64,000 nt of DNA from a virus. A program made the position numbers and the translations under genes. The notes beneath the pieces were generated by a model, which saw only the letters and a list, made by a program, of their open reading frames with translations, searched no databases and was not told the DNA's origin. Below, piece by piece: positions 42,777 to 56,571 of the stretch (the first letter of the stretch is position 1; each line of letters opens with the position of its first letter). The DNA lies in the UHGV virus genome UHGV-0299153. One strand, written 5' to 3'.

Positions 42777-44060
42777 TTATTCCAGCACCTCCCAAGTGTC
42801 TGGGTTAACATTTCGGACGCAGATACCGACAGGGAATTGGTAGTTGTTGTCTTCTGTCCTTGCTTGATATTTGAAGGTGACAAACTTGCCGATCATTTCC
42901 TGCATTCTGTCATAGCTACGCTCCTCGTGCGTACCTTTCATCTTCATTTTAACAACAATACCTTCCTTGTCAACACAGATAAGAACACCTTCATCATTCT
43001 TATCTTTCTCAACGTCAATAACTTTCACCTCTGCGTCGTTGAACTTTTTCCATTTCAATGCTTCAGATGTTCTCTGACCGTACTCATATTTACCACAGAA
43101 GTTACGCATAATGGTACCTTCATATCCTTCGGACATGAATATACCAACAGATTCTTCGCAATGATCAACTGTGTACGCAAGCTCTGCGTCAACAACCTTG
43201 ATATGGTCAAGCATCAGAGTGGTAACGGTATCCTCTGCATCCATAAGATCCTTGCAGCGTCCAGACTCTGTTTCGGGATCCCACCACACCTTGTCGCTAG
43301 GAATATCAAAAATGTGATACTCCAGATCGTAGCTACAGTACCCACCGTAACGCAAATCATCACGAACAGGCTCAACATCGACAGGAATATCTACCTTGTT
43401 GAAGTTTTTGTATGTTGATAAGCCGGACTTAATTGCGGCATGACGGCGTTTTTTATCTGCCTCATAGTCTTTATCGATCTCGGCCTGAATCTCTTCCTGT
43501 GTGCGCCACCGTTTAGCAAGAGACACTATTTTCTGCAAAGGAAGACCATGAATGTATAGTTCCCCATCAAGTTGTTTAATCCCAGTGGTAGAATGGAAAG
43601 AACGAAGTTGCTCTAAAAGCTTTCCTTGAATAGGGTAGGACTTATTACCACGGGAAATAAATTTAGGCTCACCATTTTGGAAAACAACAAGCAGACGAAG
43701 GCCATCTAACTTACGCAAGATCCAGCAAGGTAGTTTAAGTGCCTTGCCACGCTTCAGGTAGTCATGCACCAGCATGGGTAAAAGATCAACACCCTGCTCG
43801 CAATCTTCCATGTTTTCAACATACCCCAGACGGACTTGTTTTTCCCACTTGCTGATAGCCTCAAGCTCGGCCTGTTGCTCAGCTGTAGTCTCATTGGCAC
43901 GACCTACGTTCTTAGGTGTGCATACCGTCTCTTTGTACTGCAATTTACCGTCAAGCTTGCCAAACTCTACGATAACCTTTTCGCCATCAGTGAATACTTT
44001 CCACTGTTGGTAGCTGCCATCTTTGTTCAGTGCGTACAGTGTTGTTTTGATTTGATGCAT
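42777..44060 (-). CDS. ATP-dependent DNA ligase
   Basis: Motif I KxDG (LRKLDGLRLLVV); 427 aa. Confidence 0.65.
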   Translation of the reverse strand: MHQIKTTLYALNKDGSYQQWKVFTDGEKVIVEFGKLDGKLQYKETVCTPKNVGRANETTAEQQAELEAISKWEKQVRLGYVENMEDCEQGVDLLPMLVHDYLKRGKALKLPCWILRKLDGLRLLVVFQNGEPKFISRGNKSYPIQGKLLEQLRSFHSTTGIKQLDGELYIHGLPLQKIVSLAKRWRTQEEIQAEIDKDYEADKKRRHAAIKSGLSTYKNFNKVDIPVDVEPVRDDLRYGGYCSYDLEYHIFDIPSDKVWWDPETESGRCKDLMDAEDTVTTLMLDHIKVVDAELAYTVDHCEESVGIFMSEGYEGTIMRNFCGKYEYGQRTSEALKWKKFNDAEVKVIDVEKDKNDEGVLICVDKEGIVVKMKMKGTHEERSYDRMQEMIGKFVTFKYQARTEDNNYQFPVGICVRNVNPDTWEVLE

Positions 44061-44686: not shown

Positions 44687-45400
44687 TCAAATATACTCTG
44701 TTACATCCTTGAAGCTCGAAGGCTTCATGATCTTACCTTTACTGTCAAGGAATATGATAACTTTATTACCGTTGTAGAACTCTTCCTTAGCAACAAAACC
44801 TTCGTAGCGACCATCAAAGCGTCGCTCAAGATCTTTAATCTCCAACTCTATGAGTTGTTCAGCAGGCATATCTGCACTGGCACCGTGTGAATACCGTAGA
44901 TGGTTTACCCGTGCAAACTTGCTGTCATTAGATTTGAGAACCTTACGCATCATCCCGCACACATCGCCGCGAAGCTGGAACAGCAAAGCTGTTGACAACT
45001 CCGCTAAGCGGTAAGCTGACGCTCTTTGCTTGGATGTGTTTTTCGCAGCGATCAGTGTATCATAGAACTCACCGATCTTGAACTTAAGACCTCGTGGATT
45101 ATCAAACAGGTTTGACCACTTTTCGTGATTGTCATTAACGAGATAAGCTGCATAACTTGTGACAACGTGAAGATCGCAGGCCTCTTTTAGCAGGTGATCT
45201 CCACCATCACCTTTCTCCAGCTCTTCCAAAACCTCATTGAACTCTTCCTCAATGAAGCTAAGCTGTAATTCGAATGGTGTGTATGATTTTTTCACTTTAG
45301 CTGCCACACGGTTCCAGTTTTCCACCCAGTTGGCAGACCAAAGGTAGTTTTCAGGCTGAGACAGTTTTTCCAGGTTGTCGATCAGTTTAGTATTTAGCAT
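44687..45400 (-). CDS. hypothetical protein (possible MazG-like NTP pyrophosphohydrolase, weak)
   Basis: Acidic EEEFNEVLEELE...DLH block loosely resembles MazG/HisE metal-binding helices. Confidence 0.35.
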   Translation of the reverse strand: MLNTKLIDNLEKLSQPENYLWSANWVENWNRVAAKVKKSYTPFELQLSFIEEEFNEVLEELEKGDGGDHLLKEACDLHVVTSYAAYLVNDNHEKWSNLFDNPRGLKFKIGEFYDTLIAAKNTSKQRASAYRLAELSTALLFQLRGDVCGMMRKVLKSNDSKFARVNHLRYSHGASADMPAEQLIELEIKDLERRFDGRYEGFVAKEEFYNGNKVIIFLDSKGKIMKPSSFKDVTEYI

Positions 45401-45414
45401 TAAAAGGTCACCTC

Positions 45415-46176
45415 TTACAGTTCCATAAAGTTTTCTACAGTTTCAATAAATGCTTTATCAGAGAAAGCGTCAACAGCACCGTTAAACCATACAGGGATCC
45501 CGCGATCCTCATATTGATAAAGGTCGCTACGTGAAATGCCACTTCCATCTGCACTCTGCGAATCATACTTGTTTACAATCAGCAGTTTTGTGCCTTTACA
45601 AGTAGCAGGAAACAATTCCCAGTTAAAATTAATAACTGTGTTAGAACAACCTACCAGGATCACCATATCATTGCTGGTAAGAGATGTCAACAGGTCATAC
45701 ATGTCTGTATACTTAGGAGCAACCTCACCGAAGAACACTACATTGGGCTTAACCCAGGTATACTTGCCTGTATCTACCTCCGTGTATCCGATATTTTTAA
45801 TTACATCATTACCTTCAGCATCTTCGTAGGTGATTTCAGGCAAATACCCGTGGACATGTAAAATATCTTCATGTTTTACACCAGCACGCTCCAGCAAATC
45901 ATCTACATTGGTAGTAAGGTTGATCACACGACCATACCAGCGGGAATACCACTCAGCGATCCGAAGATGTGCAAGGTTAGGATCAACACTGCCCAGAGCT
46001 ACACGACGTGCATTGTAAAAGTCATGCACCTTATAGTAGTTCTTGGCAAAGGTGTGGATGTTGCACACCTCATCGATGCTGAAATTCTCCCACATTGCAG
46101 TGCTACCAGATCGGAAAGTGGGAATACCAGATTCAGCGCTCAAACCAGCACCGGAGATAATAATCAGTCGTCGCAT
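45415..46176 (-). CDS. Sir2-family (sirtuin) NAD-dependent enzyme
   Basis: GAGLSAESGIPTFR, TTNVDDLLERAG, VHG (catalytic His), VVFFGE, VLVGCS; no CxxC zinc-ribbon pairs. Confidence 0.8.
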   Translation of the reverse strand: MRRLIIISGAGLSAESGIPTFRSGSTAMWENFSIDEVCNIHTFAKNYYKVHDFYNARRVALGSVDPNLAHLRIAEWYSRWYGRVINLTTNVDDLLERAGVKHEDILHVHGYLPEITYEDAEGNDVIKNIGYTEVDTGKYTWVKPNVVFFGEVAPKYTDMYDLLTSLTSNDMVILVGCSNTVINFNWELFPATCKGTKLLIVNKYDSQSADGSGISRSDLYQYEDRGIPVWFNGAVDAFSDKAFIETVENFMEL

Positions 46177-46184
46177 AAGTGTCC

Positions 46185-46535
46185 TCAGTAGATGTTTTGT
46201 TTAATCTCTATTCCAAACTTCTTGAATGAGTCAGCAGCAAGCATAAATTTACGAGCTGCCGATGGATTAGAAGTATGCACGAAAATAATCACGTTGTCAA
46301 TAAGTGGTGGCTTTCCGAATACAAGTTTCTCCTCTAGCGCAGAGAAGCAGTCGTACCCTTCAAGCACTTCACCTAGGTCATTGTCAAAATACCACTCAGA
46401 TACGCGTCTGTAGAGCTTTCTCTTATCATTAAGAAAATCCATAAACTCAGAAGAATTCTTTAGCCACAGAGCGTCTGGGAGTCCATAATCTGACGGATCT
46501 CTAAAATCATCAAGCCACACAATCCACTTCTTCAT
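46185..46535 (-). CDS. hypothetical protein (116 aa), possible receiver-like fold
   Basis: ORF track; KWIVWLDDFRDP N-terminus; 4-nt overlap with RNA ligase gene. Confidence 0.45.
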   Translation of the reverse strand: MKKWIVWLDDFRDPSDYGLPDALWLKNSSEFMDFLNDKRKLYRRVSEWYFDNDLGEVLEGYDCFSALEEKLVFGKPPLIDNVIIFVHTSNPSAARKFMLAADSFKKFGIEIKQNIY

Positions 46536-47467
46536 TGCATATAGTCCTCGTTGTGGAAATAGTAGTCCAGTATCTCACGACGCTCCTGCTCTAATAAGCA
46601 ATTCCACACATCTTCTGTACAGTTGCTACGAATAAATTTTACCATACCGTAAAACTCTTCGTCAACACGTTTAAAGATATCATCATCCCAAATCTTCCAA
46701 GCTTTACCCCTCATTACGGCCTTCCGTGCCAGATAGTATGGAGACTTGATCTTCAGCTGCAGATCATAAGGGTAGTAAGGCTTACGAATCATATACCCTT
46801 CACCTCTTGTTTCTGCAGCTAATTCTTTTGCATAGCTGAACGGAATTTCACGCACAGTGTGAGGACGTTTTGCACCAAGGTATTTGGCAATCCCATCTAA
46901 AGCTGCTTCTGGTAGCATTATTCCAGAATCATTATATCTGCAACCTATCAAATATGCGCCATGATCTTCCTGAACAATATGCGGATCTGAAGGGTGGCAA
47001 ATTTCAAACATGAATGTCATGTTTTCATTGCCCATAACCTTCTTGATAAGATCTAAATTACCACATTGCTCCCTGATGGTTTCTTTTGCGAGGTTACAAT
47101 ATGGGGAATCAAGAGACCCGGTTGTTGAGAACAATAGTTCACCTTTATGAGATGATACCACACCGAGGAATCCGTTCTTTTTCTCTACCGCAGTAACAAG
47201 TTTACTGTCCGGTAGGTTGGTGGAGTTTTCTCCTAAGTTGAATACTTTTGTGAAAGGCCATGCCACAACATTCCCCTCATTGCCAACAACAATACCTCGG
47301 CACTCCAGTAAACGCGGAGACAAATGCCACAGATTGTTGTAGAATACTTTTCTGGCATATTTATAGATCTTTAATCCAAGATCTGGATAATACCGACTGG
47401 TTACAAGACCTTTGTCTACTAGGTCATCTGCATTAAAATACTTCATCATACGTTCCTCATTTGTCAT
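46532..47467 (-). CDS. RNA ligase (nucleotidyltransferase superfamily; putative)
   Basis: Candidate motif I EKKNGF (KxNG), motif IV FMFEICHP, motif V LQLKIKSPYY; adjacent to kinase/phosphoesterase pair. Confidence 0.5.
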   Translation of the reverse strand: MTNEERMMKYFNADDLVDKGLVTSRYYPDLGLKIYKYARKVFYNNLWHLSPRLLECRGIVVGNEGNVVAWPFTKVFNLGENSTNLPDSKLVTAVEKKNGFLGVVSSHKGELLFSTTGSLDSPYCNLAKETIREQCGNLDLIKKVMGNENMTFMFEICHPSDPHIVQEDHGAYLIGCRYNDSGIMLPEAALDGIAKYLGAKRPHTVREIPFSYAKELAAETRGEGYMIRKPYYPYDLQLKIKSPYYLARKAVMRGKAWKIWDDDIFKRVDEEFYGMVKFIRSNCTEDVWNCLLEQERREILDYYFHNEDYMQ

Positions 47468-47510
47468 TTTGTCAGTCTATCCTGACACACAAATAACCTA
47501 GTGTCAACAC

Positions 47511-47539
47511 TTGAAATTAACAAAACAGTTAGGTATACT
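47511..47539 (+). promoter_or_regulatory. sigma70-like promoter at divergence point
   Basis: TTGAAA-17 bp-TATACT, 29 bp upstream of ATG 47568. Confidence 0.5.
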
Positions 47540-47567
47540 ATCATTAAAATTAAAACGGAGGATTGCT

Positions 47568-47978
47568 ATGTCTAAAATGCTATATATCGTGCGTGGTCTG
47601 CCAGGGTCTGGCAAATCAACACTGGCAAATGCGCTATCTTTAGAAGGTCTGTATCCACATTTTGAGAACGACATGTTCTGGTATGACGATGACGGCAATT
47701 ACAACTGGGATGCAAGTAAAGTAACACTCGCAGCAAAATGGTGCAAAGATAACGTAGAAGATATGATGCGTATGGGATACGACCGTATCGTGGTAAGCAA
47801 TACGTTTACAAAAGAAAAACATGTGCAGGAATATGTTGACATGGCAATCAGTCACGGGTATAGTTATACCGTGATCGTGGTTGAAAACCGCCACGGTAAT
47901 AAAAGCATTCATGATGTTCCAGACAAGGTTGTGGATCGTATGGAACGCCAGCTTAAAAACTGCATTAAACTTAAATGA
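47568..47978 (+). CDS. P-loop polynucleotide kinase-like protein
   Basis: N-terminal LYIVRGLPGSGKSTLANAL P-loop typical of polynucleotide-kinase (PNK)-type kinases; ACGGAGG SD. Confidence 0.55.
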   Translation: MSKMLYIVRGLPGSGKSTLANALSLEGLYPHFENDMFWYDDDGNYNWDASKVTLAAKWCKDNVEDMMRMGYDRIVVSNTFTKEKHVQEYVDMAISHGYSYTVIVVENRHGNKSIHDVPDKVVDRMERQLKNCIKLK

Positions 47979-47985
47979 GGAATGT

Positions 47986-48540
47986 ATGAAATACTTTGTA
48001 ACAAGCGATACACACTTTCTCCACCAGCGGGTCATGGAGTTTGATTCATGTCAAAAACACAGATCTCAGTATGATCACAATCTTGACAGTATGAATGCGG
48101 GAATCATCACCAAGTGGAACTCTGTTGTGTCACCTGCAGACACTGTGTTCCACTTGGGAGATATTGCATGCACTAATGATAAGAATATCAACAAATTGCT
48201 CCCAGATATTCTAAATATGTTGAACGGACATATTATTCTTGTTCGTGGCAACCATGACACAAGGACGACTGTCAAAATTATGAAAGAGTTCGGTCATGAG
48301 GTTGTAGATTATTACGAGCTTCGCCACAACAAGAATTTGATCTGTATGAGCCATTACCAGTTTGCAAAGTGGAACAGAAAGCCTCACGGATCAGTCCAAC
48401 TGTTCGGTCATGCTCACGGAACCACACAACAGTTGTTTGGCAGGCAGCTTGATGTCGGTTGGGATGTGTGGGGGAGACTCTTACCATTAGAAGAGGCATA
48501 CCGTATTGCAATGAGTTTTGATATTGACAGCAGGGAGTAA
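47986..48540 (+). CDS. calcineurin-like metallophosphoesterase
   Basis: TSDTHF (DxH), LGDIA (GD), VRGNHD (GNHD/E), GHAH blocks. Confidence 0.75.
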   Translation: MKYFVTSDTHFLHQRVMEFDSCQKHRSQYDHNLDSMNAGIITKWNSVVSPADTVFHLGDIACTNDKNINKLLPDILNMLNGHIILVRGNHDTRTTVKIMKEFGHEVVDYYELRHNKNLICMSHYQFAKWNRKPHGSVQLFGHAHGTTQQLFGRQLDVGWDVWGRLLPLEEAYRIAMSFDIDSRE

Positions 48541-48587
48541 TCCCTGCTATTTTAAAGAAAATTGCCACACAAGGAGAATCAGGAGAT

Positions 48588-48938
48588 ATGAAAGATGGGG
48601 ATAAGCTGCTATATCTTAAAGTCCCCCTTGAAATACTGTCTATGTCAAAAGTTTTGAATGACACAACTGGGGAGGTTGTTGTTCTTGACTTGTATGACAA
48701 GATCGTATACTGCTACCTGCACAACTGGTATAAGCTTGGAGGAAATTCACGCTTCACACCAAGCACAAGGAAAATTGCAGCAGATATTGGGATAAAGAAA
48801 ACAAAAGCAGCAGCGTGCGTTAAAACTTTAGAATGTGCAGGAGTGGTTGAAACATCCACACAAGGGAGAGGTAAAAGATGCACATTTTCCAAAGTTTTGC
48901 CACCAGAAGAAGTTATTCGAATGTCAACAACTGGTTAG
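48588..48938 (+). CDS. hypothetical protein, possible DNA-binding (116 aa)
   Basis: ORF track; AGGAGAA SD; TRKIAADIGIKKTKAAACVKTL resembles an HTH; lies upstream of iteron array. Confidence 0.5.
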   Translation: MKDGDKLLYLKVPLEILSMSKVLNDTTGEVVVLDLYDKIVYCYLHNWYKLGGNSRFTPSTRKIAADIGIKKTKAAACVKTLECAGVVETSTQGRGKRCTFSKVLPPEEVIRMSTTG

Positions 48939-49013
48939 ACCAGCAAAAACTTAAATATCTGTACTATAAGGATTTGTATGTTTTATGTTCACCACGGAAC
49001 AGAAACTATTAAC

Positions 49014-49073
49014 TGTCCGTCACGCGGACACATCTGCCCGTAATACGGACACTAACTGTCCGTGATACGGACA
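49014..49073. repeat. Iteron array: alternating TGTCCGT / ACGGACA half-sites (5 copies)
   Basis: TGTCCGT 49014 and 49057; (A)CGGACA 49025, 49045, 49067; followed by 130-bp AT-rich block with palindromes AGTAC-N5-GTACT. Confidence 0.7.
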
Positions 49074-49577
49074 CATAAAGAATATAACTAAAATAACTAA
49101 ATAATAAAAATAAAAGATCTAGTACTTATGGTACTAAGTACATATACTTAACTTATGTAGAATATATTAGATCCTAAGTACCATGTTTTTAAATTTATTA
49201 CTTACTATGGGTAGTGTCGGCCCTTCATTGGCACTCGCCTACGAGGGGCGAGATGCCGGGCCTCCCTAGTGCACACAATAACAGAGGTGCATACATGCAG
49301 GTCTGTTAACATGTGTGGGAGCGAAGCGATAGCGCAGGCCAAAGGCCGAGCACTAATGTGGGCCACCGACGAAAGCTTGCCAGCGCCGTAAGGAGTCGGT
49401 TGAGAGCCTCCCGCGCGAGTTTGGATAAAGTTTATGTGTGGAAACGGATAATGAGGCCCCTAAATCACTCAACAGCTATATAAACCATACCAAGTAATGC
49501 AATCGCACCAGTTTGATAGAAAAGCTCGTTACAAAGCGATACAGTGAGTTTTTCTATAACTTGAAGAGGAGGCAGCT

Positions 49578-50156
49578 ATGAGTTCACGCAAAGATGACCG
49601 TGAAAAGATTGCAAAACGTTATCAGAATGAAGAACAGATGGAGAAAACTTTCAAGTGGAAGCCAGGTTTCCAGCGTAATCATTCTAACGCTCGTGATCGT
49701 AAGCATCCAGATAAGTGGCTAACACCGCCAAATGATGGCATGCAGGCTGGTGATGAGAAGGAGCTGTCACCTGGAAAAGATGGCAACTATATCCGCACTA
49801 AGGAAGCGAGTCCAAAGGATGATAGCTATCTTGTAGATAAGGTTCTTGATGGTATTGATGTAGATGTTGACACTGCACGAAACCTTTTTCTTGGTTGGTA
49901 TCGTACAGGGTTTTTCGACATCAAGGCTATTCGTCGTGTTTGTGATATTAAAAAGTCTGCCTATGATGATGACTCCCTACATCGCACTCTGAGACAATAC
50001 TCAGAGAGATACGGTCATCCAGTTATCACTCTTGACGATATTAACGAAGTGATGTATCATGCAGAGGTTGTTGCAGGTAGATTCGGTGATGCATATCTCG
50101 GTATTCTTTCTGCAAAAGATGAGGCAATGTTAAATAAAATTTACTATGAACGCTGA
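49578..50156 (+). CDS. hypothetical protein (192 aa)
   Basis: ORF track; GAGGAGG SD. Confidence 0.55.
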   Translation: MSSRKDDREKIAKRYQNEEQMEKTFKWKPGFQRNHSNARDRKHPDKWLTPPNDGMQAGDEKELSPGKDGNYIRTKEASPKDDSYLVDKVLDGIDVDVDTARNLFLGWYRTGFFDIKAIRRVCDIKKSAYDDDSLHRTLRQYSERYGHPVITLDDINEVMYHAEVVAGRFGDAYLGILSAKDEAMLNKIYYER

Positions 50157-51447: not shown

Positions 51448-51522
51448 GCCCTGTTAGCTTAGTGGATAAAGCAGCGGCCTTCTAAGCCGTTGACACTGGT
51501 TCGAGTCCAGTACGGGGTGCCA
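51448..51522 (+). tRNA. tRNA-Arg (anticodon TCT)
   Basis: Cloverleaf folded by hand: acceptor GCCCTGT/ACGGGGT, anticodon loop CTTCTAA, T-arm ACTGG-TTCGAGT-CCAGT, encoded CCA. Confidence 0.75.
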
Positions 51523-51526
51523 AATT

Positions 51527-51613
51527 GGGGAGTTATCCCGTAGAGGTAGCGGTGTAGACTGTAAATCTATTGTCATTGCGACTCGGGTGGTTCGACTCCA
51601 CCACTCCCCACCA
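51527..51613 (+). tRNA. tRNA-Tyr (anticodon GTA), type II
   Basis: Acceptor GGGGAGT/ACTCCCC, anticodon loop CTGTAAA, long variable arm, T-arm GGTGG-TTCGACT-CCACC, encoded CCA. Confidence 0.8.
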
Positions 51614-51728
51614 AATTTATATTTTTTAGATGCATAAATAATACAGATAATGGCATTGATATTTATCGTCGTTTATACTAGTCACTAACTGCTCGAAAAT
51701 CAGTGTCATTATCAGTATAATTTATAAA

Positions 51729-51819
51729 GGAGGGTAGGGAGCAATGGTGCTCAAGCGGTCTTGAAAACCGTCCCGTTGAGGATGACTCGATGATGGTTCG
51801 ATTCCATTACTCTCCGCCA
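51729..51819 (+). tRNA. tRNA-Ser (anticodon TGA), type II
   Basis: Acceptor GGAGGGT/ACTCTCC, anticodon loop CTTGAAA, long variable arm, encoded CCA. Confidence 0.75.
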
Positions 51820-51917
51820 CATTGTTGACCTTGTAATTAAGCGAAAGCCGGAAGCAGAACCGGATTATCAAATGTTACAGTCGTCATCGCCGACTAGCAA
51901 CATGGTCAACATATTGA

Positions 51918-52014
51918 GCTAGGTAAGCCCTTTGGCAAGGGCGAGGATTTTTAATCCTGAAAATAGACGAGGTAGTCGTTGAATACATAGGTGGTTCGAT
52001 TCCACCGCCTAGCA
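51918..52014 (+). tRNA. atypical tRNA-like gene (anticodon loop TTTTTAA, apparent UUU; about 30-nt variable region)
   Basis: Acceptor GCTAGGT/GCCTAGC, D-arm GCCC-TTTGGCAA-GGGC, T-arm GGTGG-TTCGATT-CCACC; only a 4-bp anticodon stem; no encoded CCA. Confidence 0.45.
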
Positions 52015-52021
52015 CCTTTTT

Positions 52022-52097
52022 GCTGATGTAGCACAATTGGTAGTGCAATTGATTTGTAATCAATAGGTTGCGGGTTCAAGTCCTGCCATCAGCACCA
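52022..52097 (+). tRNA. tRNA-Thr (anticodon TGT)
   Basis: Acceptor GCTGATG/CATCAGC, anticodon arm ATTGA-TTTGTAA-TCAAT, encoded CCA. Confidence 0.75.
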
Positions 52098-52098
52098 T

Positions 52099-52173
52099 GG
52101 CCCTGTAGCTGGAAGGTTCAAGCAAGCGACTCATAATCGCCAGACGGTGGTTCAATTCCACCCAGGGCCACCA
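52099..52173 (+). tRNA. tRNA-Met (anticodon CAT; could be an Ile-lysidine type)
   Basis: Acceptor GGCCCTG/CAGGGCC, anticodon loop CTCATAA, T-arm GGTGG-TTCAATT-CCACC, encoded CCA. Confidence 0.75.
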
Positions 52174-52184
52174 AATAGTAGATA

Positions 52185-52261
52185 CTCCGCGTAGCTCAGC
52201 TTGGTAGAGCGCCTGATTTGGGATCAGGAGGTCGAGTGTTCGAATCACTCCGTGGAGACCA
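52185..52261 (+). tRNA. tRNA-Pro (anticodon TGG)
   Basis: Acceptor CTCCGCG/CGTGGAG (one GU), anticodon arm CCTGA-TTTGGGA-TCAGG, T-arm GAGTG-TTCGAAT-CACTC, encoded CCA. Confidence 0.75.
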
Positions 52262-53081: not shown

Positions 53082-53365
53082 GAGTTGCTACACTGTTTAT
53101 TGCGTGCTTGTTATTATGTGGGTGTGCAACCAGTGTTGAGAAAGAATACAAGATTGACCCTCCAGATGTAGGAAGGTTGATTGTTAAACCCCCAGAAGGT
53201 GCCATGAAACCACCTGCTAAAGCTATGCCTTTGAAGAAAGGTGCGCCAGATGCAGTGAACTCTGGCATTATGAGGGATAATAATCTGTCTTGTAGCAATG
53301 ATAGAGCTAAATTGATCATTTTGCAAGACTATATTAGAACACTGTTTCCAAAGGAGAGAGGTTAA
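53078..53365 (+). CDS. o-spanin (Rz1-like outer-membrane lipoprotein)
   Basis: Signal peptide with lipobox-like LLLCGC, proline-rich mature region; 95 aa. Confidence 0.6.
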   Translation: MRVATLFIACLLLCGCATSVEKEYKIDPPDVGRLIVKPPEGAMKPPAKAMPLKKGAPDAVNSGIMRDNNLSCSNDRAKLIILQDYIRTLFPKERG

Positions 53366-54912
53366 TGTCTAAGATTTACGGACCGTGTTCTGAAAAGCAG
53401 AAGATGATCCTAGAAAACGATGCAGATATTTTGGTAATCGGCGGTGCCGCAGGGTCTGGCAAGTCGTTCCTCTTGCAGTTGATGCCACTTAAAATTATTG
53501 ATGACCCCCACAGCTCTGTGGTTATGTTCCGAAGAACAACCCCACAGTTGGAAGGTGAGGGTGGACTATGGCCTAAAGCAGTAGCTATTTATAGTGATCT
53601 GCCTGAAAACATTAAGCCAAAGTTCAGAGAGAAGGATCATAAGTTCATTTTTCCACGGTTTGATCCGAACACTGGCAAGTGGGATAGGAGCAAAAAGGGA
53701 GCTGTTGTAAAATACTGCCACATGGAGTATGTACAAGATAAGCTTAACCATCAAGGGCTTGAGTACACCATGGTTTGCTTCGATGAGGGAACGCAGTTCG
53801 AATGGGAGCAGATAGACTATCTGATGTCTCGTCTGCGATCTCAGTCAAAGTATCCATCAAGAATGGTTATCAGCTGTAACCCAGATTCAGAACACATGCT
53901 TGCCAAACTGGTTAGATGGTGGTTGGACGATGAAGGGTATCCAGATCCGGAGAAATGCGGTAAGAAAAGATATTTTATCCGACGCGACGGTGAATTTATC
54001 TGGGGAGACTCTAAAGAAGAGTTGATAGAGAAATACACCACGGTTAACGGACTGGGTGTGGAGATCAAGCCAAGACCGTTGTCATTCTCGTTTATAGGCG
54101 CAACAATCTTCGATAATCCTGTCTGCTTGAGAGACAACCCAGAATACCTTGCTTTTCTTGAAGGTCTGCCCGAGCTTGAAAAAGCCCAGCTTCTTCATGG
54201 CAACTGGTTTGCAAAGCCTGAGGGTGCAAACTATTTTCAAAGATCTTTCCTTCGTGATGCCGATAGAGTACCCCTTGGATCAGTATCTTGCAGGGCATGG
54301 GATAAGGCAGGAACCGAGAGAACTTCCGGTAATAAATTTCCTGACTTTACCGCCAGTGTTAAGGTAAGTAAAGATAGCGACGGCTTTTATTACCTGTCCG
54401 GTGATTATTGTCCTGAGAACGTGGATGACGGGAGGTATTCCACAGGTCTGGAAGGCAAGTTCTGTAAAAAGGCTGGTGAACGAGATGTGATCATCAGGAA
54501 ACAGGCGCAGTTTGATGGTGATGATTGTATAATCGTATTCTCTGTGGACCCCGGTCAGGCAGGTAAGAGTGAGTTCTTAACATCCTCCAGATCCTTGCTC
54601 GCCGAAGGGTTTAGGGTTGAAGAAGACCCAATGCCTTCCAACAAATCTAAACTGACAAGGTTCTCACCTTTTGCCAATCTTGCCCAACAAGGAATGGTTA
54701 GGATTGTAAAATCCAGTTTCCATCCTGATACTCTGGAAGCATTTCTGACTGAACTTGAAAAATTCAACGGGGAAAGATCAACATTTAACAGGAAAGACGA
54801 CTGGGCCGACTGTGTAGCTTCTGCGATTAATTTCCTGGAGAAAGAGGAGGTAGCACTTCCTTGTGTGATTCCATCAATCTCATCACCTTCTATGTTCAAG
54901 CGTTTTATCTAA
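53365..54912 (+). CDS. terminase large subunit
   Basis: Walker A ILVIGGAAGSGKSF at N-terminus, 515 aa, immediately upstream of portal-sized gene. Confidence 0.75.
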   Translation: MSKIYGPCSEKQKMILENDADILVIGGAAGSGKSFLLQLMPLKIIDDPHSSVVMFRRTTPQLEGEGGLWPKAVAIYSDLPENIKPKFREKDHKFIFPRFDPNTGKWDRSKKGAVVKYCHMEYVQDKLNHQGLEYTMVCFDEGTQFEWEQIDYLMSRLRSQSKYPSRMVISCNPDSEHMLAKLVRWWLDDEGYPDPEKCGKKRYFIRRDGEFIWGDSKEELIEKYTTVNGLGVEIKPRPLSFSFIGATIFDNPVCLRDNPEYLAFLEGLPELEKAQLLHGNWFAKPEGANYFQRSFLRDADRVPLGSVSCRAWDKAGTERTSGNKFPDFTASVKVSKDSDGFYYLSGDYCPENVDDGRYSTGLEGKFCKKAGERDVIIRKQAQFDGDDCIIVFSVDPGQAGKSEFLTSSRSLLAEGFRVEEDPMPSNKSKLTRFSPFANLAQQGMVRIVKSSFHPDTLEAFLTELEKFNGERSTFNRKDDWADCVASAINFLEKEEVALPCVIPSISSPSMFKRFI

Positions 54913-55014
54913 GTGTTGCCAATCTTAATTAGATGTGGTAGAATAGAGTAATCGGAGATACTAGCCCTCTAACACGAGGGCTATTTTGTTATACTGTTTT
55001 GAGGGGTAAAGCTT

Positions 55015-56571
55015 GTGTCCAAAAAGAACCGCAGGAAACACAACGCCACAGCCAAAACTGTGAATAAATCTGGGAACGCAGGCGCACCAACTCATAATGT
55101 TCGTATGAGTGAGATCGGTTCTGGCGCACTTTCCCAAATTATGGCAGAGTCGCAATCTATGATGGTTGAGGAATTGCGTTGGCCTCAGCTGATTGCTACA
55201 GTGGAGACTATGAAATGTGATTCCACAGTTGCTACTGCCTTAGATACAAAATATGTTTTCATCACGAAAGCATTTAATGATTTTAAGATCCTTTATAATG
55301 TTAAAAGTGAAGACTCTAAGAAAGCTGCCGAGCTTATAGAGTATTCTTTGCGTAATTTGGCAAACCAACAAACTCTTCGAGATATTGCAAGAAGCGCAGC
55401 TACCTTTAACGAGTATGGTTTTTCACTGTTTGAGAAAGTATACCGCAGAGAGAGAGAAGGTAAATATGCCGGGATGCTTCTTATTGATAAAATTGCATTC
55501 CGACCTCAGGCTAGTTTGTCCAGATCAGAGCCGTTTGTTTTTGACAAGAATAGTAGAACACTGACAGGTATTTATCAGTCACCTAATGCATTTCTAAACA
55601 CTCAGAATGCACGCTGGGCTGGACCTCTTGCTGCAATGCCTTCAAAAGGCTTTAATGAGCCTGAAATTTTCATCCCTGCTAAAAAGCTTATGCTCATGAC
55701 CCTGTCAGGAACAGAATCTAACCCTGCAGGTGTGTCACCGATGATAGGTTGCTACAGATCTTTCCGTGAGAAAGTTCTGATTGAAAACCTTGAGGTTGTT
55801 GGCTGTTCCAAAGACCTTGGTGGTGTGCTTGAGCTGAAAATTCCTTCCAATATTTTGAACAAGGCCAGCATTGACCCGAATTCAATGGAAGGGAGAATGG
55901 TTGCAGACCTTATGCTTGACGCAGCAAACGCCCATAGTGGTGAGCAAAGTTTCTTTATACTTCCGTCTGACAGAGATAAGTCTGGTAAAGAGCTTTACTC
56001 CATGACCCTGAAGGGGGTTGACGGTATGGGTAAGCAGTATTCCACTAAAGATTTGATTGATGCCCGTAAGAAGGCGATTCTTGACCGTTTCGGTGCTGGC
56101 TTTATTAACCTCGGTAACGATAACGTTGGATCCTTCTCTCTGTCTGAGTCAAAACAGTCTATCCATGGTCATTTTGTTCAGCGTGATATAGATATTATCA
56201 CTGAGGCCTTCAATAAAGATCTTATTCCACAGCTTCTGGCATTGAATGGTATCATCCTTGAAGATGATGATATGCCTAAACTGAAACCTGGTCTGATTGA
56301 AGAGGTGGACATGGAGAGCTTCTCCAAGTTTGTCCAGAGGATCGGTGCTGTAGGTTACTTGCCAAAAACTCCTGCAGTAATTAATAAGATTCTTGAAGTA
56401 GGCGGGTTTGATGAAAGATTTGACGAGGACATGGATCAGGAAGAGCTGATGAAGCTCTTGGGCCAGGACATCAGTAGGGCTGGTGATGGAATGGCTGCAG
56501 GATCCACTGGTAACGGAACTTCTAAGATGTCATCAACCAGAGATAATTCCATATCCAACATGGAAAATTAA
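55015..56571 (+). CDS. portal protein (putative)
   Basis: 518-aa protein directly after terminase large subunit and before scaffold/capsid genes; assigned by position and size only. Confidence 0.55.
   Translation: MSKKNRRKHNATAKTVNKSGNAGAPTHNVRMSEIGSGALSQIMAESQSMMVEELRWPQLIATVETMKCDSTVATALDTKYVFITKAFNDFKILYNVKSEDSKKAAELIEYSLRNLANQQTLRDIARSAATFNEYGFSLFEKVYRREREGKYAGMLLIDKIAFRPQASLSRSEPFVFDKNSRTLTGIYQSPNAFLNTQNARWAGPLAAMPSKGFNEPEIFIPAKKLMLMTLSGTESNPAGVSPMIGCYRSFREKVLIENLEVVGCSKDLGGVLELKIPSNILNKASIDPNSMEGRMVADLMLDAANAHSGEQSFFILPSDRDKSGKELYSMTLKGVDGMGKQYSTKDLIDARKKAILDRFGAGFINLGNDNVGSFSLSESKQSIHGHFVQRDIDIITEAFNKDLIPQLLALNGIILEDDDMPKLKPGLIEEVDMESFSKFVQRIGAVGYLPKTPAVINKILEVGGFDERFDEDMDQEELMKLLGQDISRAGDGMAAGSTGNGTSKMSSTRDNSISNMEN

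Follow-up and report, generated by a model that had tools for sequence, protein, structure and literature searches.

An rV5-like coliphage carries, a few kilobases from a cluster of tRNA genes, a polynucleotide-kinase-like gene and a calcineurin-type phosphoesterase gene transcribed away from an RNA-ligase-like gene, and the question that this locus raises is whether the three products repair broken RNA together and, if so, against what. The window studied here is a 64,000-nucleotide stretch of a viral genome (UHGV-0299153) that belongs to Vequintavirus, with 96-98% identity to many records and 96.5% identity to phage V5 across the RNA-repair region. An earlier note on this DNA had proposed a divergent RNA-repair cassette, and each of the elements it named was found where it had been placed. 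From its sequence, the locus is a predicted RNA-repair cluster of kinase, phosphoesterase and RNA ligase with three accessory genes. The neighbourhood and the gene names are already public, and the locus is not novel as a genome-scan finding: Iyer et al. 2022 (Viruses 14:1977, PMC9503650) predicted the V5-type neighbourhood in silico as RNA repair, as part of a sirtuin-centred type 2 neighbourhood "prototyped by Escherichia phage V5 and Proteus phage Mydo", and all six of its genes are present within 44687-48540. Our searches of the literature found no biochemical or genetic data on any protein of the cluster and no experimental work on RNA repair in Vequintavirus.

Layout of the locus

The divergent arrangement was borne out, with the ligase gene on the minus strand and the kinase and phosphoesterase genes on the plus strand around a spacer of exactly the proposed length, and the promoter-like sequence claimed for the spacer is present there (Table 1). 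In the diverged relative L003 this plus-strand site is kept in position as TTGACA-17-TAATAT, and the spacer also retains its core GTCAACACTTGA as well as its -10 position; promoter-like matches are modestly enriched in the region (33 observed vs 20.7 +/- 4.4 expected). For the ligase, no sigma70-like site in the spacer scored over the scanner threshold on the minus strand, and the back-to-back site listed for that strand is a weak candidate. Inside the kinase gene, 5' of the phosphoesterase, lies another promoter-like site, and the rV5 record marks the sigma70-type promoter P80 at the matching position. The spacer is where the genome as a whole switches strand, with the GC-skew minimum at the same place, and not a private regulatory region, and the repair set heads two divergent early transcription blocks. 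Among the sequences compared, Vequintavirus alone has the divergent layout, and relatives show co-directional operons or fusions.

Table 1. Positions of the genes and sequence features discussed (numbering of the window).
Feature	Position	Strand	Basis
Terminator-like GC-rich hairpin, right after the MazG-like stop codon	44663..44680	-	consensus scan
MazG-like all-alpha NTP pyrophosphohydrolase-like protein, last of the minus-strand unit	44687..45400	-	PHROG 671
Sirtuin (Sir2) family protein	45415..46176	-	Pfam SIR2 1e-27; PHROG 2162 at 5e-108
cREC (cyclic-phosphate-processing receiver-like) protein, predicted	46185..46535	-	Pfam PF20274
Short Rnl1-type ATP-dependent RNA ligase, putative	46532..47467	-	longest ORF, 311 aa; Pfam PF09511
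Divergent control region, 100 bp exactly	47468..47567		sequence read directly; strand-switch point
Palindrome TGTCAG-N6-CTGACA in the spacer	47470-47487		sequence read directly
Weak back-to-back promoter-like site	-35 TTGACA 47507-47502; -10 CAGGAT 47484-47479	-	by eye
Plus-strand promoter-like site	TTGAAA 47511-47516, 17 bp, TATACT 47534-47539	+	consensus scan, 10/12
Minimal polynucleotide-5'-kinase-like P-loop kinase, putative, 136 aa	47568..47978	+	Pfam AAA_33, PHROG 505
Promoter-like site inside the kinase gene	47836..47864	+	TTGACA-17-TATAGT, 11/12
Stand-alone dinuclear metallophosphoesterase, presumed 3'-end healer, 184 aa	47986..48540	+	Pfam, PHROG 547
tRNA island, seven tRNA or tRNA-like genes	51448..52261	+	ARAGORN

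The core of the proposed cassette stands, and its extent had to be widened, as the cREC, sirtuin and MazG-like genes 3' of the ligase had been overlooked. The minus-strand unit runs from the ligase through these three genes to 44687, with a 4-nt overlap between the ligase stop codon and the cREC start codon. The hairpin behind the MazG-like gene may mark the end of this ligase-cREC-Sir2-MazG transcription unit; it is weak evidence, since terminator-like sites are not enriched (7 observed vs 7.4 expected). The cREC protein, set among RNA-repair genes with no histidine kinase, matches PF20274 at 9e-14 (52.3 bits vs a cut-off of 27), with invariant D9, D10, D13, D51, D53, S89 and K96 forming a receiver-like acidic site, and such proteins are predicted to help to resolve cyclic phosphates (PMC7824862, PMC9503650). 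The sirtuin is zinc-less and scores under every NCBIfam CobB cut-off. The MazG-like protein, which is counted in the V5-type neighbourhood (PMC9503650), matches PHROG 671, nucleotide pyrophosphohydrolase, at 5e-22 and has no Pfam match; none of the six cluster proteins reached the cut-off of an NCBIfam family. The three are clade-specific accessories, which would probably provide an alternative or extra route for cyclic or 2'-phosphate ends, or deal with by-products.

The tRNA genes begin 2.9 kb beyond 48540, in agreement with the distance of about 3 kb given before. The island holds Arg-UCU, Tyr-GUA, Ser-UGA, an odd 99-nt tRNA-like gene, Thr-UGU, a CAU tRNA (Met or Ile) and Pro-UGG, and five of the seven genes pass the Rfam tRNA gathering score. 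Its closeness may have relevance to the repair set.

The three core proteins

The ligase covers the whole of the Pfam profile PF09511 (RNA_lig_T4_1) at E 9e-15, with 55.5 bits against a cut-off of 28.3. Its start is probably M7 or M8 (47449 or 47446), because a GAGGA precedes, the homologues begin there and residues 1-8 of the model are disordered. Searches of solved structures with the single sequences of the ligase and the kinase gave nothing useful and profiles were needed; the ligase family profile matched T4 Rnl1 (2c5u) at E 1e-12, and hhalign aligned the ligase to T4 RnlA with a probability of 97% over T4 residues 33-248. Thirteen positions (R57, G58, K74, F76, N77, K96, N98, G99, E155, E223, G224, K239 and K241) are invariant, among them motif I, K96-x-N98-G99, which is the same in 27 homologues and aligned to T4 K99-E-D-G. 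K96 is thus the predicted adenylylation lysine, equivalent to T4 K99. The residues R57, K74, F76, E155, E223, G224, K239 and K241, which belong to motifs III, IV and V and to the upstream positions specific to Rnl1, are also aligned to T4 residues, and in T4 Rnl1 R54, K75, F77, E159, E227, G228, K240 and K242 are known to be essential from mutational work. Loss of the adenylation lysine had been named earlier as the finding that would speak against a ligase, and the alignment finds the lysine kept together with all Rnl1 catalytic residues. The protein falls far under the cut-off of the T4 RnlA equivalog TIGR02308 (37.5 bits vs 242.25) yet over that of PF09511, and therefore stands as a subfamily of its own within the Rnl1 superfamily. 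T4 Rnl1 is about 65 aa longer, and the phage ligase appears to be without most of its C-terminal all-helical tRNA-specificity domain (T4 residues about 255-374). This speaks against tRNA in particular, which is therefore a presumed target. In the C-terminal part of the phage protein R253 and R296 are invariant.

The kinase matches Pfam AAA_33 at 1e-10 and PHROG 505, polynucleotide kinase, at 5e-10, and hhalign aligned it to residues 2-141 of T4 Pnkp (probability 95.5%, E 1.5e-8). Its P-loop, G10-L-P-G-S-G-K16-S17-T18, fits GxxxxGK(S/T), and the invariant residues include G13, G15, K16, T18, D35, N78, T79, R108, H109 and G110, with S17 nearly invariant; D35 is aligned to T4 D35 and to the first Asp of RDDFR in Pnkp1. 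The possibility that this is a nucleotide or adenylate kinase had been raised before, and the predicted fold is nearer to polynucleotide and tRNA kinases than to nucleotide kinases, the model being nearest to T4 Pnk and Clostridium Pnk and not to adenylate kinases. In the lid region E-N-R108-H-G is invariant, and hhalign places R108 on T4 R122 with low confidence; in T4 the lid arginine R122/R126 contacts the NTP. Two features do not fit the T4 enzyme, however: position 38 is W in the window and F in most homologues where T4 has Arg38, and the invariant N78 stands where T4 has Asp85, both of which are essential in T4 according to mutational studies. The protein is wholly kinase domain, with no fused C-terminal HAD (DxDxT) 3'-phosphatase. 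Among 80 loci with bacterial chromosomal homologues of the kinase, a ligase adjoins in two and the phosphoesterase of this set in four, and no recurrent functional neighbour was found; the kinase family is therefore not intrinsically bound to RNA repair, which also counts against a repair role.

The phosphoesterase starts at ATG 47986, which has a GAGGA ribosome site, and not at TTG 47881, as public records concur, 7 nt behind the kinase stop. Both PF12850 (Metallophos_2) and PF00149 (Metallophos) score over their cut-offs and PHROG 547 matches at 2e-52. In 29 sequences D8, H10, G58, D59, G88, N89, H90, H123, G141, H142 and H144 are invariant and D91 nearly so, and all six superfamily motifs (DxH, GD, GNH(D/E), H, GH and GxH) are kept. 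The nearest solved relative is aq_1665 (1xm7; profile E 5.5e-28), with weaker matches to GpdQ, YfcE, MJ0936 and the P. putida nuclease MPE, while the profile gave no match at E<=0.1 to the lambda-Pase/CthPnkp clade. The enzyme was correctly described as a separate metallophosphoesterase without a fused HAD domain, but the suggested resemblance to bacterial Pnkp is an analogy only, and by sequence it would be placed in the uncharacterised aq_1665 type and not in the lambda-phosphatase/Pnkp type. CthPnkp and lambda-Pase are the two metallophosphoesterases shown to heal RNA 3' ends. Both the lack of a detectable relation to these two and the kinship with the uncharacterised aq_1665 stand against the proposed role in 3' healing.

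Gene linkage and competing explanations

Among 80 viral ligase loci, this kinase lies within 8 kb in 73 and this phosphoesterase in 62. Seen from 79 kinase loci, the phosphoesterase is found in 57, an Rnl1-like ligase in 30 and an unrelated Rnl2-type ligase (PF09414) in 25, and the kinase-phosphoesterase pair therefore follows two RNA ligase families. From either side the phosphoesterase is a constant partner and not an occasional one. Sirtuin (11/80), cREC (13/80) and MazG (13/80) are found in few ligase loci even after iterative searches; they are clade-restricted parts of the neighbourhood, and the ligase family as a whole thus works without them. At least four gene arrangements occur: phosphoesterase>ligase>kinase, kinase>ligase>phosphoesterase, divergent, and a single kinase-plus-ligase ORF; sister clades have phosphoesterase>ligase>cREC>kinase>Sir2>(DNA ligase)>MazG on a single strand. 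Of eleven loci, at least seven have kinase and ligase fused into one protein, the fusion having been confirmed domain by domain in seven, and beside one such fusion gene (L053) Pfam found no substitute phosphoesterase in nine neighbouring ORFs. The shuffled gene order, the linkage and the kinase-ligase fusions indicate that kinase, ligase and phosphoesterase act together.

It is likely that the locus encodes an RNA break-repair set, for end healing and sealing. The T4-like healing-and-sealing function suggested in the earlier note is thereby upheld by profiles, motifs, fold searches, linkage and fusion. The kinase would transfer a phosphate from NTP to the 5'-OH end, with D35 as general base alongside the P-loop and R108, the lid Arg; the binuclear metallophosphoesterase would open the cyclic phosphate and remove the resulting phosphate to leave a 3'-OH; and the ligase would adenylylate itself on K96, pass the AMP to the 5'-phosphate and seal the break. 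This reading is based on homology, conservation of catalytic residues, fold, gene linkage and gene fusion, and from it we infer which substrates are used, the chemistry of the phosphoesterase, the order in which the steps follow, the promoters and what the set is directed against. The most likely role would be the reversal of attack by host or competitor RNases on tRNA or other translation RNAs, and an anticodon nuclease may be what the set counteracts. RNA healing and sealing is the classic phage response to anticodon nucleases, and T4 Pnkp and Rnl1 perform such repair against PrrC.

Alternatively, the six genes could form one obligate, NAD+-dependent pathway of the fungal/plant type, as proposed by Iyer, Burroughs, Anantharaman and Aravind, in which cREC or the phosphoesterase would open the cyclic phosphate to a 2'-phosphate, the ligase would seal, and the sirtuin would act like Tpt1/KptA and move the 2'-phosphate to NAD+, after which resolution of the ADP-ribose cyclic phosphate would fall to cREC and removal of by-products to MazG. 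Ligase, cREC, Sir2 and MazG do form one tight minus-strand unit, and sister clades carry them with the kinase and phosphoesterase on one strand. Trl1 requires a 2'-phosphate recognised by Arg residues in its C-terminal domain (PMC12440814), with which the invariant R253 and R296 may be compared, although superposing the phage arginines on those of Trl1 did not succeed. In C. thermophilum Trl1-LIG the pocket for the 2'-phosphate is made by R334 and R337. If the pathway were true, it would be a phage version of fungal/plant tRNA-splicing chemistry from unrelated folds, and would bring the first sirtuin that dephosphorylates nucleic acids and the first cREC domain with an enzymatic function; it is already in print as a prediction (PMC9503650), and novelty would lie in its demonstration alone. 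An obligate six-gene pathway seems unlikely to us, as the accessories occur in 11-13 of the 80 ligase loci against 73 for the kinase and 62 for the phosphoesterase. To our knowledge no sirtuin has been demonstrated to strip a 2'-phosphate from RNA. We likewise doubt that the ligase is a 2'-phosphate-dependent, Trl1-like sealer with a Tpt1-like zinc-less sirtuin and a cREC that resolves the by-product.

The set could also have a housekeeping role independent of host immunity, repairing or maturing the phage's own tRNAs or RNAs broken during infection. The tRNA island at 2.9 kb would suit such a role, its odd 99-nt gene might require processing, and 29 of the 59 ligase-seeded relatives scanned have a tRNA or tmRNA gene within 8 kb, a count that has no background rate for comparison and leaves about half of the relatives without a nearby tRNA gene. 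However, bacterial tRNA maturation needs no healing and sealing as far as we know, and the sole characterised precedent known to us, T4, is one of counter-defence, so that a housekeeping role appears rather improbable.

T4 gp63 also serves in tail-fibre attachment. It is most improbable that the three genes are unrelated, with the ligase in tail-fibre attachment and the kinase and phosphoesterase working on DNA ends or nucleotides, perhaps alongside the nearby ATP-dependent DNA ligase: "RNA ligase and tail fiber attachment" is a T4 label copied in many records, 42 of the 80 loci have a DNA ligase within 8 kb and Iyer et al. (PMC9503650) term the kinase a "nucleotide kinase", but the fusions and the near-constant three-gene linkage in shuffled order point to a shared substrate, every ligase catalytic residue is invariant, for which an assembly chaperone would have no need, and the kinase-phosphoesterase pair also accompanies Rnl2-type RNA ligases.

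The break-repair reading would make the rV5-type set a widespread alternative build with a minimal kinase, an aq_1665-type metallophosphoesterase and a short Rnl1, joined in some clades by cREC, sirtuin and MazG. Within phage RNA repair we know of the T4 Pnkp/Rnl1 pair alone as worked out. Biochemistry of the rV5-type set would show what two uncharacterised families of enzymes do, and would also reveal which host RNases are withstood by the common therapeutic-candidate coliphages of rV5 type.

Comparison with known systems

With T4 Pnkp (pseT) and Rnl1 (rnlA) the set shares the clustering of the genes in the early region and the logic that both ends are healed and then sealed; pseT and rnlA lie on the same strand, 1.4 kb apart. 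In T4 the kinase is fused to the HAD phosphatase that performs the 3' healing, whereas here the kinase is a free-standing domain of 136 aa and a separate metallophosphoesterase would take the 3' end, and the Arg38 and Asp85 of T4 Pnk are replaced in the rV5-type kinase. Pnkp of Clostridium thermocellum and Capnocytophaga Pnkp1-Rnl-Hen1 have the same three components, a Pnk-type kinase, a binuclear metallophosphoesterase and an adenylyltransferase ligase. The bacterial Pnkp is one polypeptide with a phosphoesterase of the lambda-Pase/CthPnkp clade, while the phage set consists of three separate proteins with an aq_1665-like one, and no Hen1 methyltransferase was found among the nine genes scanned (42777-44060 and 44687-50156). 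Fungal and plant Trl1 (ligase-kinase-cyclic phosphodiesterase) shares the ligase-kinase fusion with some phage relatives, but in the phage fusions the domain order is reversed, with the kinase N-terminal, and the 2H-type phosphodiesterase of Trl1 has no counterpart in the phage set. The closest system is the V5 neighbourhood of Iyer et al. 2022 (PMC9503650), with its T4-like ligase, cREC, kinase, MazG, sirtuin and, in part, calcineurin-like phosphoesterase: it is the same locus, every component is shared and there is no difference in the locus itself.

Gene content of the locus in Vequintavirus

The locus belongs to Vequintavirus, the rV5-like E. coli myophages, as more than 100 phage records are 96-98% identical to the 5.6 kb around it and name its three core genes 'RNA ligase', 'polynucleotide kinase' (also 'ATP-binding protein') and 'phosphoesterase'. 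It is thus already annotated, and a published in silico description takes this phage itself as prototype (Iyer et al. 2022, PMC9503650), so as a finding it is not novel. No experimental work on the proteins of the locus (ligase, kinase, phosphoesterase or accessories) was found in the literature, and as a biochemical system the locus is moderately interesting. The top DNA matches to the window (98%; MG065654, MG065666, MG065676 and 15 others) are unannotated and titled 'Campylobacter phage'; they are plainly rV5-like coliphage genomes, so the host given in the titles seems mistaken or the result of contamination.

ORF calls bore out the positions that the earlier note gave for the three genes, and all the elements it described were found in place. 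Translation of the ligase most probably begins at M7 or M8 (47449 or 47446), because GAGGA precedes both codons, homologues start there and residues 1-8 of the model are disordered. The phosphoesterase start is the ATG, behind a ribosome site and 7 nt past the kinase stop codon, and not the TTG upstream. Three genes behind the ligase had been overlooked. First comes a cREC gene (PF20274; domain defined in a jumbo-phage paper of the same authors, PMC7824862) with invariant receiver-like acidic residues, whose start overlaps the ligase stop codon; it is followed by a sirtuin gene at an 8-nt gap, a MazG-like gene at a 14-nt gap and a terminator-like hairpin. In sister clades the ligase, cREC, kinase, sirtuin and MazG-like genes form one co-directional operon, with the kinase between cREC and sirtuin.

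Features of the locus and its surroundings
Feature	Coordinates	Strand	Remark
ATP-dependent DNA ligase	42777-44060	minus	0.6 kb past MazG-like gene
Ligase ORF	46532-47467	minus	
Divergent spacer	47468-47567	both	100 bp
TTGACA	47507-47502	minus	perfect match; weak -10 follows
TTGAAA-17-TATACT	47511-47539	plus	
Kinase ORF	47568-47978	plus	
Promoter P80	47836-47864		inside kinase gene; annotated in rV5 record
Phosphoesterase	47986-48540	plus	start ATG behind GAGGA ribosome site
HTH protein gene	48588-48938	plus	third plus-strand gene
tRNA-like gene	51918-52016	plus	99 nt, long extra arm
CAU-anticodon tRNA	52099-52173	plus	
Terminase large subunit region	53365-56571	plus	two long ORFs, 53365-54912 and 55105-56571

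Linkage of the three core genes across phages

The strongest new evidence that kinase, phosphoesterase and ligase work together is the linkage survey. Six-frame ORFs of 80 viral loci with ligase relatives (35-89% identity) were searched with a profile of each window protein, and partner counts within 8 kb of the ligase were confirmed through iterative searches. The kinase was found at 73 of the 80 loci and the phosphoesterase at 62, with cREC at 13, the MazG-like gene at 13 and the sirtuin at 11. The widespread core is therefore kinase, phosphoesterase and ligase, and sirtuin, cREC and MazG are additions in one clade, which moves the emphasis relative to the published description. The order phosphoesterase-ligase-kinase was seen in about 36 loci, counting those with accessory genes in between, and kinase-ligase-phosphoesterase in 19; the divergent layout was seen in the Vequintavirus locus alone. 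At 42 of the 80 loci, as in the window, a DNA ligase lies no more than 8 kb from the RNA ligase.

At 11 loci, all IMG/VR contigs (L040, L041, L043, L045, L046, L048, L050, L053, L056, L058 and L060), a single ORF of about 430 aa gives both the kinase and the ligase match, and in the seven examined domain by domain the kinase always formed the N-terminal part and the Rnl1-like ligase the C-terminal part. Near these 11, no phosphoesterase of the window family was found. In five of them (L043, L048, L053, L058, L060) the phage also encodes a tmRNA, with its gene 4-6 kb downstream.

The reverse survey, seeded with the kinase, gave the phosphoesterase in 57 of 79 loci, an Rnl1-like ligase in 30 and an unrelated Rnl2-type ligase (PF09414) in 25, the last link being first noticed in freshwater phage contigs with abutting kinase and phosphoesterase genes. 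The pair accompanies RNA ligases of two families and is fused to those of one, for which an RNA end-healing module is the best explanation. As a caveat, members of the 130-aa kinase family also occur frequently as orphan genes on the chromosomes of Bacteroidota, Vibrio, Leptospira and Halomonadaceae (37-49% identity), and at 80 such loci (L171-L250) the ligase or this phosphoesterase was almost never adjacent and no partner recurred; the association is therefore a feature of phages and does not extend to the kinase family as a whole.

The strand switch and the tRNA island

The plus-strand site that the earlier note gave as a promoter is present in the spacer, and a consensus scan gave only mild enrichment of promoter-like matches in the region (33 against 20.7 +/- 4.4 expected). 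In L003, a diverged relative with an 89% identical ligase, the equivalent position reads TTGACA-17-TAATAT within diverged flanks. Back-to-back with it, the minus-strand TTGACA is conserved too; read by eye, this is a candidate promoter for the ligase, below the threshold of the promoter scanner. The ligase heads a minus-strand block of 36 kb of genes, the kinase heads a plus-strand block continuing through tRNAs, terminase and structural genes, and the cumulative GC skew of the 64-kb window has its minimum at the spacer. The spacer is the strand switch of the genome, and the 'divergent cassette' thus marks a junction on the scale of the genome and not a dedicated regulatory device. The HTH protein matches PHROG 12838 'replication initiation protein' (6e-80), and a replication origin may lie near the spacer or this gene.

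Seven tRNA or tRNA-like genes start 2.9 kb downstream, in line with the roughly 3 kb reported earlier; among scanned ligase-seeded relatives 29/59 have tRNA or tmRNA genes within 8 kb, which says little without a background rate. The 99-nt tRNA-like gene, conserved in L003, stays under the Rfam gathering score for tRNA; its fold is a cloverleaf whose anticodon arm is unusual (GGAUU-UUU-AAUCC, z -3.8). ARAGORN gives it a 4-base anticodon (atcc), and phage EmilHeitz carries a homologue annotated as tRNA-Lys (AAA). Possible readings are a decoy or a variant tRNA-Lys(UUU), which would fall in the class targeted by PrrC/PARIS. The CAU-anticodon tRNA, Met according to ARAGORN and the rV5 record and Ile (ATA codon) according to a BASEL record, may be a lysidine-modified tRNA-Ile2. 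The rV5 annotation joins the terminase from three pieces, which with the two long ORFs of the window suggests intervening elements.

The core proteins and the proposed repair route compared with known systems

The ligase matches Pfam RNA_lig_T4_1 along the entire profile; a profile of 27 homologues found T4 Rnl1 in PDB (E 1e-12), and hhalign against T4 RnlA gave 97% probability. The adenylylation lysine, on which the earlier reading depended, is present as K96 in K96-x-N-G (T4 K99-E-D-G), and all catalytic positions align and are invariant in the family: R57/G58 (T4 R54/G55), K74/F76/N77 (K75/F77/N78), K96, E155 (E159), E223/G224 (E227/G228) and K239/K241 (K240/K242). The ligase nevertheless forms a separate subfamily; its score falls far short of the equivalog cut-off for T4 RnlA. 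Most of the T4 C-terminal domain, to which tRNA specificity has been attributed in the literature, appears to be absent from the window ligase.

The phosphoesterase has the full set of six motifs of binuclear metallophosphoesterases, each of them invariant across 29 homologues. Among solved structures it comes closest to Aquifex aq_1665 (profile E 5.5e-28), which stems from structural genomics and has no known function; GpdQ, YfcE, MJ0936 and the Pseudomonas nuclease MPE match less well. Neither lambda phosphatase nor the phosphatase domain of CthPnkp was matched at E<=0.1, and the proposed likeness to bacterial Pnkp therefore holds at the superfamily level and not beyond.

The kinase, 136 aa, is a bare kinase domain from a very large family (more than 7,900 clusters at 90% identity). 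Its profiles match T4 Pnk, CthPnk, Pnkp1 and PSTK weakly (E about 1e-3), and hhalign against T4 Pnkp gave E 1.5e-8 over T4 residues 2-141. The P-loop, the general-base D35 (T4 D35) and R108 in the lid region are invariant, whereas an aromatic residue stands in place of T4 Arg38 and an invariant Asn in place of T4 Asp85; the fold and core chemistry are therefore PNK-like, and the protein is not a typical member.

A T4-like healing and sealing route is the best supported and probably the right one: the kinase would produce the 5'-phosphate, the metallophosphoesterase would turn the 2',3'-cyclic phosphate into a 3'-OH, and sealing by the ligase would go through K96-AMP. In the sirtuin-bearing clade an NAD+-dependent, Trl1/Tpt1-like route could operate instead, which we consider unlikely. 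The sirtuin has been proposed to remove 2'-phosphates as KptA does (PMC9503650), the ligase model is equally similar to Trl1 and to T4 Rnl1, and Trl1 recognises the 2'-phosphate by C-terminal arginines. The healing-and-sealing interpretation of the earlier note was largely right. Following the T4 precedent, the target of the T4-like route may be tRNA anticodon loops or other RNAs, and its role would be counter-defence.
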